A stretch of 64,000 bases of DNA from a virus, in IMG/VR virus record IMGVR_UViG_3300045125_000101, positions 7,823 to 71,822 of that record; one strand, written 5' to 3'. Position 1 is the stretch's first letter; every line of letters starts with the position of its first letter. Below are positions 4,481 to 22,263 of this stretch, in pieces. The position numbers and the translations under genes are program-made. The notes under the pieces were generated by a model, which saw only the letters and a program-made list of their open reading frames with translations, did no database searches and was not told the DNA's origin.

Positions 4481-5003
4481 CGTGCGTAATAGACTGACAG
4501 CTAAAATAAAAAAAGTCAAGGAAGAATTGGTACTTCGCGAAACAAGTGAAACTCACAGGTTCACCTTCAGAATCAGTCATTATGATCTTATGCCTTCACG
4601 CTCAACTTCAAGGTTTTGATCTCTAGGACTTGAAAGCCATACTCGTCACGATGTTCTTCCCAAGATACAGACATTACTTCATTGGTAGGTTCATTACCAC
4701 ACATGCTATGCTGATATGAGGCAAACATATCCATTATGCTGGATAAGTCTGACAACATCGGCGGAATTGATGAGATCAAGAGCCTCTTGGAGTTTGATTT
4801 TCATTAGTAGTATGTTGGACCATAATCAAGAAAATCAAGGTTTATTTGGCGAAAGTGATGCTAAACAAGCCAGAGCGAACAATCTTCCAGCCCTTGCGCT
4901 GATAGCTTTCAGCAAGCTTGATGCCAGCAATAGTGTCAGTACGAATAGTGATGTGTTTCATACGATGCTTAGACTACCTAAGAAATAAAATAAGTCAAGA
5001 AAA

Positions 5004-5081
5004 TTGTTTGCAATGGCGCGAGCTTTCACGCGCTATTATGGCACAGGGCCATCCTCTCCTTGTCTTTGAGTTCATTGCGAA
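5004..5081 (-). ncRNA. cloverleaf tRNA-like RNA with non-canonical loops
   Basis: Stems GCAATG/CATTGC, CTC/GAG, ATGGC/GCCAT and GCGCG/CGCGC in tRNA order and spacing. Confidence 0.55.
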
Positions 5082-5089
5082 AAAGAACT

Positions 5090-5145
5090 GTTGGTCAAGC
5101 GATGGCATTGAACCATCTTTAATAGACTATTCTATCTCAACCAAC
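5090..5145 (-). ncRNA. 56-nt mini tRNA-like RNA (closing stem, one hairpin, T-arm)
   Basis: GTTGGTTGAG/CTTGACCAAC, ATAGA/TCTAT, GATGG-TTCAATG-CCATC. Confidence 0.5.
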
Positions 5146-5186
5146 AAGAATGAGTATGACTTTTTTATCTAAAAGTCAAGAAAGTA

Positions 5187-5263
5187 TTTGCTCATCCGAT
5201 TCGAACGGATTTTTGTGCAATGCACTATGACCAATCGCCTTGGTACCTCAAGGTTTGAGCAAA
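5187..5263 (-). ncRNA. 77-nt tRNA-like RNA without a recognisable anticodon arm
   Basis: TTTGCTC/GAGCAAA acceptor stem, CCTTG/CAAGG hairpin, perfect T-arm ATCCG-TTCGAAT-CGGAT. Confidence 0.6.
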
Positions 5264-5267
5264 AAAT

Positions 5268-5347
5268 TGGAGCGATGTGAGCCGAACACGCGGCCCGCTT
5301 CTGACGGGAATGTCAGTATGCTTATCGTACATCTACATCAACACCGC
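5268..5347 (-). tRNA. atypical tRNA-Gly(TCC)-like
   Basis: GCGGTGT/ACATCGC, discriminator U, CCA; anticodon stem CTGAC/GTCAG with 6-nt loop ATTCCC; T-stem truncated. Confidence 0.55.
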
Positions 5348-5365: not shown

Positions 5366-5456
5366 GGTTCATCAAAGCGAGGGAGCCGATCCCTAATCAC
5401 GCTGACCTATGGTTAATTACTCCTTCGGTCACGAGTTCCGCACTAACTTTGATGAA
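5366..5456 (-). ncRNA. 91-nt RNA with a 10-bp terminal stem ending in CCA
   Basis: TTCATCAAAG/CTTTGATGAA+CCA; internal TGACC/GGTCA and AGGGA/TCCCT stems. Confidence 0.6.
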
Positions 5457-5494
5457 AAAGAGAATGACTATTTTTAATTAAAAGTCAAGAAAAT

Positions 5495-7546: not shown

Positions 7547-7625
7547 TGGCGCTCTTGGCGGGACTCGAACCCACATTAATCCAGTTATGCGCGTTCTGTT
7601 TAGAAGACAGAGCCAATACAAGAGC
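7547..7625 (-). tRNA. D-armless tRNA-Arg(TCT) with long variable region
   Basis: GCTCTTG/CAAGAGC+G+CCA; TCTGT-CTTCTAA-ACAGA; GTGGG-TTCGAGT-CCCGC; only 7 nt between acceptor and anticodon stems. Confidence 0.75.
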
Positions 7626-21028: not shown

Positions 21029-22263
21029 TCAACTTATTATATCAAGGTTGTTATATTTCTTGAACAATACAGGTTCTGGACGGCAGTTCATCCATTTATC
21101 AAGCAGTGTGCTATATACTTGTCTAAAATCTGTGCTAAACTCAACATCTTGATTTTTTTGCAGTTTTAGGCTTGGTGCATTGCCATATATTCCACCTTTT
21201 ATGTTTGAACCTAATACAAATAATGGAGCAGCAGTGCCGTGGTCTGTACCAGCACTATCATTTTCATTTGGTCTGCGGCCAAACTCGCTAAAAGTCATTG
21301 TAGTTACTTGATTATCAAGTTTATGACCTTCTAAATCTTTTTGAAAAGCAAATAGTGCTTCTGATAGTTGTTGCAATAAGTTGCCGTGATTTAGCAACTG
21401 ATTGCTGTGTGTATCAAAGCCGCCAATAGATACAAAATATACTCGCGTTGGTAATCCTGCTTGTATAAGAGCAGCAACATTGCGTAATGAAGATGCCAGA
21501 TTGCTGTTGGGATATTTATAGTAAGGCTTATAGGCATCCAGTTTTTGTTGTACTTTGCGTTCTGTTACTAATGTGTTCATTAGCGTTTGCTTTAGAAAAG
21601 TACCATTATCATCGCCGTTCATTGCTTCAGAGTATGAACTTTCAAGCAACTTTCTTGTATCATCATTATCACGACGATTTATTCTATTTACAAAACCAAA
21701 AGTAGAATGCGGCTTTTTTCCGCCGAATGATTGCGGCGTGTTGCCTGTCATATGTATAGCAACAGGGTCGTGATTATCAGATGGCATACCAGAGCAGGCA
21801 TTATCAAGAAAACGTCCTATCCAGCCTGTAGATGATGTTCTATCACTATCCATTGCTGTTTCCCATATTTCTGTGGAACGAAAATGACTGCGATTTGGAT
21901 TTGGATAGCCAACATTTTGAACAATGCCAAGTTTGCCGCCAAGATATAAATCATTCATCTTGGTCATTGATGGATGCAGTCCGTGAGTGCTGTTTAGTGC
22001 TATAACATCTTTTTTCTTGATGGCAATCTTTGGACGAAGATTATAATAGTTGCTGTCTTCATATGGCACCAATGTATTCAAACCATCATTACCACCCGCC
22101 AGTTGAACAAGCACAAGTATGCTTTTGTCTTTTTCTGGCTTTGGCTGAGATGCCATTGCTGAACGCACCAAAAACTCTGGAGCAAACTGACCAAAGAAAG
22201 CAGACCAATGCCTGCGGACGACAACTTGATAAACTCTTTGCGTGTATGGGGTAGATTTTTCAT
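21029..22263 (-). CDS. DUF1501 family protein with Tat-like signal (frameshift near 22190)
   Basis: TRKEFIK leader; LVLVQLAGGNDGLNT, NPNRSHFRS, GGFDTH, FSEFGR, GTDHG motifs. Confidence 0.9.

Follow-up and report, generated by a model that had tools for sequence, protein, structure and literature searches.

Among described systems, the non-decoding tRNA mimics mascRNA, YrlA, and the small RNAs of phage T4 appear, by analogy, to be most like the phage-encoded, tRNA-shaped RNA that we describe here. The vertebrate mascRNA and menRNA (RF01684) are tRNA shaped, have an unconserved anticodon loop and no encoded CCA, are uncharged, and mark the 3′ end of a precursor; they also possess a canonical T-loop and a D-loop GG/C elbow pair, and they lack linkers at the junction (PMC11693755). 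The phage RNA resembles them in shape, in its free anticodon-position loop, and in its unencoded CCA, but it keeps the linkers, bears a UGAAA loop, and is without the canonical G-C elbow pair. YrlA and the bacterial Y RNAs are also tRNA-mimicking noncoding RNAs, some of which occur in phages, and they are distinguished by a stem that binds Ro60, an acceptor arm that is either closed or permuted, and adjoining Ro60 genes (PMC4201824). We found no TROVE gene (PF05731) in five records, of which one is rated complete. The RNAC and RNAD of T4 lie in the T4 tRNA region and are longer than the RNA described here. They too are non-decoding small phage RNAs with an unexplained function, but they are classed as late (PMC9697503), whereas our RNA lies in what is probably an early-type region.

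Decoding tRNAs (RF00005) share with the phage RNA four stems, the cloverleaf order of those stems, and overall dimensions. The phage RNA is, however, without the 7-nucleotide (nt) anticodon loop, U33, and a conserved anticodon, and it also does without U8, the canonical G18-G19, and T54-psi55-C56. Allo-tRNAs and irregular tRNA polycistrons are similar in that they comprise odd tRNA-like genes in arrays, some of which are probably non-translational; these have anticodons and 8/4 or 9/3 branches (PMC5389517), whereas the phage RNA has a 7/5 (or 6/5) branch and no anticodon.

We analyzed a 64,000-nt stretch of DNA (the window), which is part of a 138-kb virus record. The tRNA-shaped RNA is encoded on the minus strand from 5079 to 5008, at the end of a phage tRNA and small-RNA cluster, downstream of and co-oriented with Lys, Thr, and Glu tRNA genes; its assignment is based on folding, covariation, and a covariance model score of 90 to 95 bits. 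The 5′ strand of the acceptor-like stem (5073 to 5079) contributes to six firm pairs and starts with a variable position 1, and it is followed by an A-A linker (5071 to 5072) that is invariant in all aligned members. The D-like arm (5054 to 5070) has a 3-bp stem and an 11-nt loop, for which the family consensus is AAAR-N(1-3)-AWGGM. The anticodon-position arm (5038 to 5052) consists here of a 5-bp stem and a 5-nt loop, and in the family the stem covaries and ranges from 4 to 6 bp. Next come a 4-nt variable region with a conserved A-N-U-A in the alignment (5034 to 5037) and a T-like arm with a 5-bp stem and the 8-nt loop UGAAARCU (5016 to 5033). The 3′ strand of the acceptor-like stem (5015 to 5009) and a tail without CCA complete the RNA (together 5005 to 5015). 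Every segment quoted in the initial annotation (the acceptor, the linker, the D-like arm, the two 5-bp arms, and the variable region) is thus present, on the minus strand.

In the window copy, no alternative fold dominates, as evidenced by the cloverleaf being both the minimum-energy and the centroid fold. This fold is only modestly more stable than those of shuffled sequences (z-score of -1.75 to -1.83), with 10 to 12 of 200 shuffles folding equally well, and the plus strand also folds into a mirror cloverleaf. Because the stability of the lone fold is not far past chance, the case that the cloverleaf exceeds chance is made by covariation in homologs. The minus strand, in turn, is fixed by the promoters, by the co-oriented tRNAs, and by homologs whose G-U pairs would turn into mismatches if the opposite strand were read. 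ARAGORN made no tRNA call at the element, and Rfam returned no match at its position at E values up to 10.

Homologs were sought with the exact T-arm, with gapped patterns in viral and metagenome contigs, with two covariance models, and in related records. The exact T-arm search recovered three true homologs, and altogether the 70 fetched loci, many of which are repeats of the same contigs or phages, yielded 22 distinct cores (25 when tails are considered), every one in a phage-like contig. The cores fall into two subtypes, neither of which matches an Rfam family. Type I, to which the window copy belongs, combines a D-stem of 3 bp with G as the sixth T-loop base. In type II, the D-stem is 2 bp, the middle loop is 11 nt long, and the sixth T-loop base is A; this subtype scores 35 to 38 bits against the type I covariance model. 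Both types are represented in a jumbo-phage group and also in another phage group, which has no canonical tRNAs nearby (L003 and L323), and one copy was found in a further, different contig (L117); in L003, L323, and L117, the copies sit in tRNA-free RNA arrays. Another carrier is a 297-kb record rated complete. A contig may have two copies, either one of each type (L089) or both of type I (L096), while a relative, L348, has a tRNA cluster and no copy at all. Such paired copies, tRNA-free arrays, and absence from a relative are as expected of an accessory gene.

Searches beyond this set returned nothing further. Among 185,579 prokaryotic genomes, a pattern for type I only gave 72 matches, all of which were chance by the covariance model, and a loose first look at a sample of 151 genomes of Verrucomicrobiota, the likely host phylum, run without a positive control, found none. 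The 50,697 GenBank phage records held no sequence match to the element. Relaxed scans for a third subtype gave chance matches only, and no properly paired top half lacking the D-loop consensus emerged when the D-arm was left unconstrained.

Comparative analysis bears out all four stems and indicates that they are under selection. In a model-fitted alignment of 21 sequences, 98.7% of stem cells pair, as opposed to 31 to 54% when the partners are slid, and double changes occur in 13 of 19 pairs, spread over all four stems; these counts overstate independent events because the alignment leans to the model and the sequences are related, the RNA family being small with two main clades. RNAalifold recovered the cloverleaf unaided from a MAFFT alignment of 15 type I sequences, with double changes in 9 of 19 pairs, and such changes are present in each stem within type I alone. 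Acceptor pairs 2 to 7 are paired in 99% of cases, three of them with double changes, and G2-C71 and G7-C66 are nearly invariant. The initial annotation had named stem keeping and covariation in homologs as a check, and it is on this point that its four-stem proposal gains most. Also, type I copies are 78 to 92% identical to the window copy, against 57 to 100% for the flanking Lys, Thr, and Glu tRNAs; such conservation, on par with that of the neighboring tRNAs, indicates purifying selection and not decay into a pseudogene.

Conservation extends well past the helices. Nearly invariant are U6, G7, the A-A linker, the D-loop AAAR..AWGGM, ANUA, the first G of the T-stem, and UGAAARCU, while the anticodon-position loop, position 1, and the tail are not conserved. 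The anticodon-position loop ranges from about 4 to 11 nt, with no conserved sequence and no shared triplet. The invariance of ANUA is partly hit selection, because ANUA was a search constraint in several pattern scans. Likewise, most searches required part of the T-loop; in one scan that left loop positions 3 and 6 unconstrained, position 3 did not vary, and neither the scans freeing D-arm or T-loop positions nor model searches of whole records disclosed other loop forms. In L338 and L096, the T-loop is 9 nt, with an extra 5′ U. The suggestion that selection acts on shape only was wrong, since both subtypes have a near-invariant linker, variable region, and T-loop and a D-loop that is near-invariant at either end, and only the anticodon-position loop is free. 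A near-invariant core and elbow next to a free anticodon-position loop and tail point to selection on the core and elbow rather than on the two business ends of a tRNA.

Type II warrants separate comment. In three of four type II sequences, a competing long-hairpin fold has a similar or lower energy (by 2 to 4 kcal/mol), and we retain the cloverleaf as the probable fold because of covariation with type I. The type II D-loop is complementary to the 11-nt middle loop in L089, L318, and L321. A pairing between the D-loop and middle loop was considered for the family and rejected, with cognate pairs no better than permuted ones (P = 0.67; 0.11 for type I alone).

The likeness to initiator tRNAs that was initially read into the 1:72 mismatch does not hold up. 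Across 25 copies, the 1:72 combination is C:A in 14, U:A in 7, A:A in 2, and something else in 2; C, U, or A occupies position 1 and faces A or U, with a U-A pair in seven copies. The RNA departs from tRNA-fMet not only at 1:72 but also at A73 (base 73 is mostly C or U), at the CAU anticodon (absent), and at the three anticodon-stem G-C pairs (in some copies only). Neither the Met tRNAs of this phage nor any of its other tRNAs is closer to the RNA than shuffled sequence, and descent from an initiator tRNA was rejected for want of signal above shuffles. The first base may not belong to the RNA at all: in L097, two true tRNAs are separated by the spacer CCA-ATTTC, after which comes G1, and the same letters precede the first G of the element in several loci, so "C1" may be part of the leader, leaving a stem of 6 bp. 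The RNA is 72 nt if it starts at the C and 71 nt if the C is leader. In type II and L003, the seventh pair is U-A.

Every copy begins its T-loop with UGAAA, a sequence that fits both YGNRA and UGNNA and that has A as its third base throughout. As the initial annotation held, the tRNA identity loops are absent: no anticodon triplet is shared, A stands at tRNA position 8, and U-G-A occupies positions 54 to 56; GG lies a single base ahead of the D-stem. Among the T-loops of FMN and cobalamin riboswitches, in which a receptor adenosine intercalates, UGAAA predominates (bioRxiv 10.1101/2022.12.26.521914). The UGNNA/YGNRA fit is shared with these riboswitches and with the double T-loops of RNase P, the T-box, and the L1 stalk, but the phage loop is 8 nt rather than 7 nt and sits in a cloverleaf, and, unlike riboswitches, the RNA lies outside a 5′ leader and has no expression platform. 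A tRNA with a comparable T-loop is tRNA-Pyl from D. hafniense, whose U54 G55 A56 A57 A58 C59 U60 likewise starts with U-G-A-A-A and ends with C-U, and which is without G18-G19 and T-psi-C yet keeps U54-A58 (PMC1851642). Of the two RNAs, only tRNA-Pyl has a 7-nt T-loop, a 1-nt linker, a 5-nt D-loop, a 6-bp anticodon stem, a 3-nt variable loop, the CUA anticodon, and G73 (PMC1851642).

Judged by its letters, the UGAAA loop is a T-loop of the riboswitch and tRNA-Pyl type. A D-loop purine probably docks in it, replacing the contact between G18-G19 and T-psi-C, which would give an L-like body with a different elbow. Alternatively, a GAAA tetraloop closed by U-G or U-A, with a CU bulge, would fit the sequence equally. 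Without C56 and the canonical G18-G19, the elbow may not be read as that of a tRNA by RNase P or other elbow readers.

The record has a close relative with conserved gene order, G001, which carries genes for a T4-type capsid, portal, and terminase. Most of the named cellular matches to the G001 DnaK come from Opitutaceae, at about 75% identity, which makes a Verrucomicrobiota host likely. Most long genes of the record are broken by frameshift-like indels relative to G001 (e.g., 4527 to 4830, minus strand), and no open reading frame (ORF) exceeds about 500 codons. These breaks are probably sequencing errors and not signs of a changed genetic code; stop-codon recoding was unsupported as a cause of the short ORFs, which the breaks explain. 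Single bases of the window copy, such as those of its A-A-C-A tail, are possibly sequencing errors too. Elsewhere in the window are a DUF1501 gene (21029 to 22171, minus strand) and an ORF that by eye is heme oxygenase-like (31968 to 32477, minus strand).

A promoter-like motif, TTGACW-N16/17-CATWST, precedes many genes of this genome, and its function as a promoter is presumed from that repetition. One instance (TTGACT-16 nt-CATACT; 5152 to 5179, minus strand) heads a unit composed of a 56-nt structured RNA (5090 to 5145, minus strand; fold z-score of -4.15) and then the tRNA-shaped RNA. The 56-nt RNA forms a three-way structure that is closed by a 10-bp stem and includes a T-arm-like hairpin, and near-identical copies occur in L007, there downstream of the tRNA-shaped RNA, and in L097. 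Between the two RNAs of the unit is a leader motif, GTTCTTT (5082 to 5088, minus strand), which is also found before the Lys and Thr tRNAs and precedes 5 of the 25 tRNAs of the genome. Its minus-strand sites at 5088, 5358, 5667, and 5795 stand directly before tRNA or small-RNA genes, here and in relatives; genome-wide, it is not enriched on the minus strand (23 versus 38). GTTCTTT resembles a boxA antitermination site. More broadly, the spacers in front of the tRNA-shaped RNA are the U-rich or CCA-ATTT ones that also precede true tRNAs, which makes release of the RNA by host processing plausible.

The surrounding clusters are rich in other structured RNAs. Three more units without an ARAGORN call lie on the minus strand at 5190 to 5263, 5268 to 5347, and 5370 to 5458; one has a canonical T-loop, one is Gly-like with CCA, and one has a 10-bp stem and CCA, and a longer relative of the Gly-like unit lies downstream of tRNA-Glu in L232. 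At 7547 to 7625 (minus strand) is a tRNA-Arg(UCU) that was called by Rfam and not by ARAGORN, with no D-arm at the usual place and a long insert in its variable region. Arrays of further conserved, unannotated structured RNAs, 60 to 150 nt long, separated by U-rich spacers and shuffled in order across contigs, are found in L096, L101, L124, L321, L323, L097, and L009 (12080 to 12700), and one arrayed family follows tRNA-Lys in L096, L101, L088, and L123. Upstream of tRNA-Lys in L124, about 700 to 900 nt before the element, a Met-type tRNA is apparently interrupted in its anticodon loop by an insert of about 200 nt that is group I intron-like.

No gene accompanies all copies of the RNA. A 63- to 65-amino-acid ORF (L009, 11841 to 12035, and its kin) often lies 100 to 700 nt downstream of type I in both phage groups; it was rejected as a partner, since it is missing from five RNA-carrying records, this genome included.

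We propose that the RNA is a tRNA look-alike that probably has a job other than making protein and that its gene is a putative stand-alone small noncoding RNA gene of jumbo and other large (aquatic) phages, patchily distributed over several phage groups. Its transcription would occur early, from the phage promoter and within a tRNA and small-RNA precursor, from which host processing enzymes would cut it out like a tRNA. The product would have a tRNA-like, presumably L-shaped body that is neither read by the ribosome nor charged, with the core and elbow as its working surface and a D-loop purine docked in the UGAAA T-loop. In trans, such an uncharged mimic would serve as a decoy or ligand whose rebuilt elbow is recognized by a host tRNA-binding protein, such as a tRNA-targeting defense enzyme. 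This is the best reading of a look-alike that is uncharged, anticodon-less, accessory, and mobile and that lies in an early host-takeover region, and we regard the decoy or ligand role with middling confidence. Phage tRNA-rich regions are known to counter tRNA-targeting defenses, but the published cases involve the resupply of real tRNAs and not decoys (PMC11555353). A narrower version, in which the RNA is an RNA-only anti-defense factor that binds and neutralizes a host tRNA-targeting toxin or sensor as one of a set of decoys in the arrays, seems unlikely. Against a decoy, 14 of 18 type I loci have the RNA in last position in its unit, a placement for which an RNA acting purely in trans has no need.

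That position suggests a cis-acting role, in which the tRNA shape draws RNase P and RNase Z, or caps or ends the precursor, and the released piece is minor. A new promoter-like motif begins no more than 7 to 9 nt past type I in those 14 loci, compared with 11 of 61 canonical tRNAs (Fisher P of 5e-6, with relatedness ignored), and it does so though the upstream neighbor changes; in the window, the next motif (4971 to 4998, minus strand) is 9 nt past the 3′ end. Also, in the loci examined, the RNA is never the first item after a recognizable promoter, and mascRNA too is without a conserved anticodon loop, an encoded CCA, or charging (PMC11693755). However, no promoter motif directly follows type II (0 of 4) or the copies in L101, L124, and L117, several copies lie inside arrays, and the upstream neighbors are often tRNAs with their own processing signals. 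Moreover, mascRNA has the G-C elbow pair that RNase P reads (PMC11693755), while the phage RNA has an A at that T-loop position, and the shuffling of units at repeated promoters could yield the same 3′ bias. A cis-acting processing or 3′-end element is the main rival to the decoy or ligand reading, at fairly low confidence.

The ends of the RNA bear on whether it might instead carry an amino acid outside the ribosome, with CCA added by the host, charging by an anticodon-blind synthetase, and delivery to a transferase. The staphylococcal non-proteogenic tRNA-Gly is a model for such a carrier. The 7+5 pairs of the acceptor and T branch in type II and L003 would suit this role, as would the near-invariant G2-C71 and G7-C66 and the A-CCA that follows the sixth acceptor pair in two copies. 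Further, tRNA-Pyl, with its similar T-loop, is charged without anticodon recognition (PMC1851642). On the other hand, CCA is encoded at the tRNA position in none of the 25 copies, including the window copy, for which its absence was initially noted, and one base earlier in 2 of the 25, whereas canonical tRNAs of the same loci keep it in 59 of 61, and the tails of four near-identical cores are all different. Pairs 3 to 5 and the base after the stem vary, leaving no visible identity set; no partner gene is common to the copies; and five records yielded no phage CCA-adding enzyme. Taken together, these observations make a carrier improbable.

The T-loop could also take part in an interdigitated double T-loop that binds tRNA, a motif described as AGNNA ... 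UGNNA and called highly invariant (PMC3664808). The UGNNA half is matched by UGAAA in all copies, and AGNNA is present in the D-loop of the window copy and of 13 of the 25 overall, but its lack in the other 12, including all of type II, renders this structure decidedly improbable. Finally, the RNA is located among tRNAs, with tRNA length and geometry and some tails like CCA relics, but its origin as a decaying tRNA pseudogene is barely credible and appears already largely refuted by stem covariation, given the compensated stems, the near-invariant non-tRNA loops, conservation equal to that of real tRNAs, and no tRNA parent detectable above shuffled controls.

This phage family of tRNA mimics with a rebuilt elbow has apparently not been described before. 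Our literature search found no paper with the T-arm strings, although a nameless entry is possible in the catalogue of Fremin et al. 2023, which lists 8,495 candidate RNAs drawn from IMG/VR (PMC10690425). The family indicates that phage tRNA regions keep, under selection, tRNA-shaped, non-decoding RNAs that are missed by tRNA finders and Rfam, and it is a naturally occurring case of a tRNA body whose elbow differs. The RNA is small and easy to synthesize, and so it may serve as a test bed for studying phage tRNA look-alikes as decoys or processing signals.
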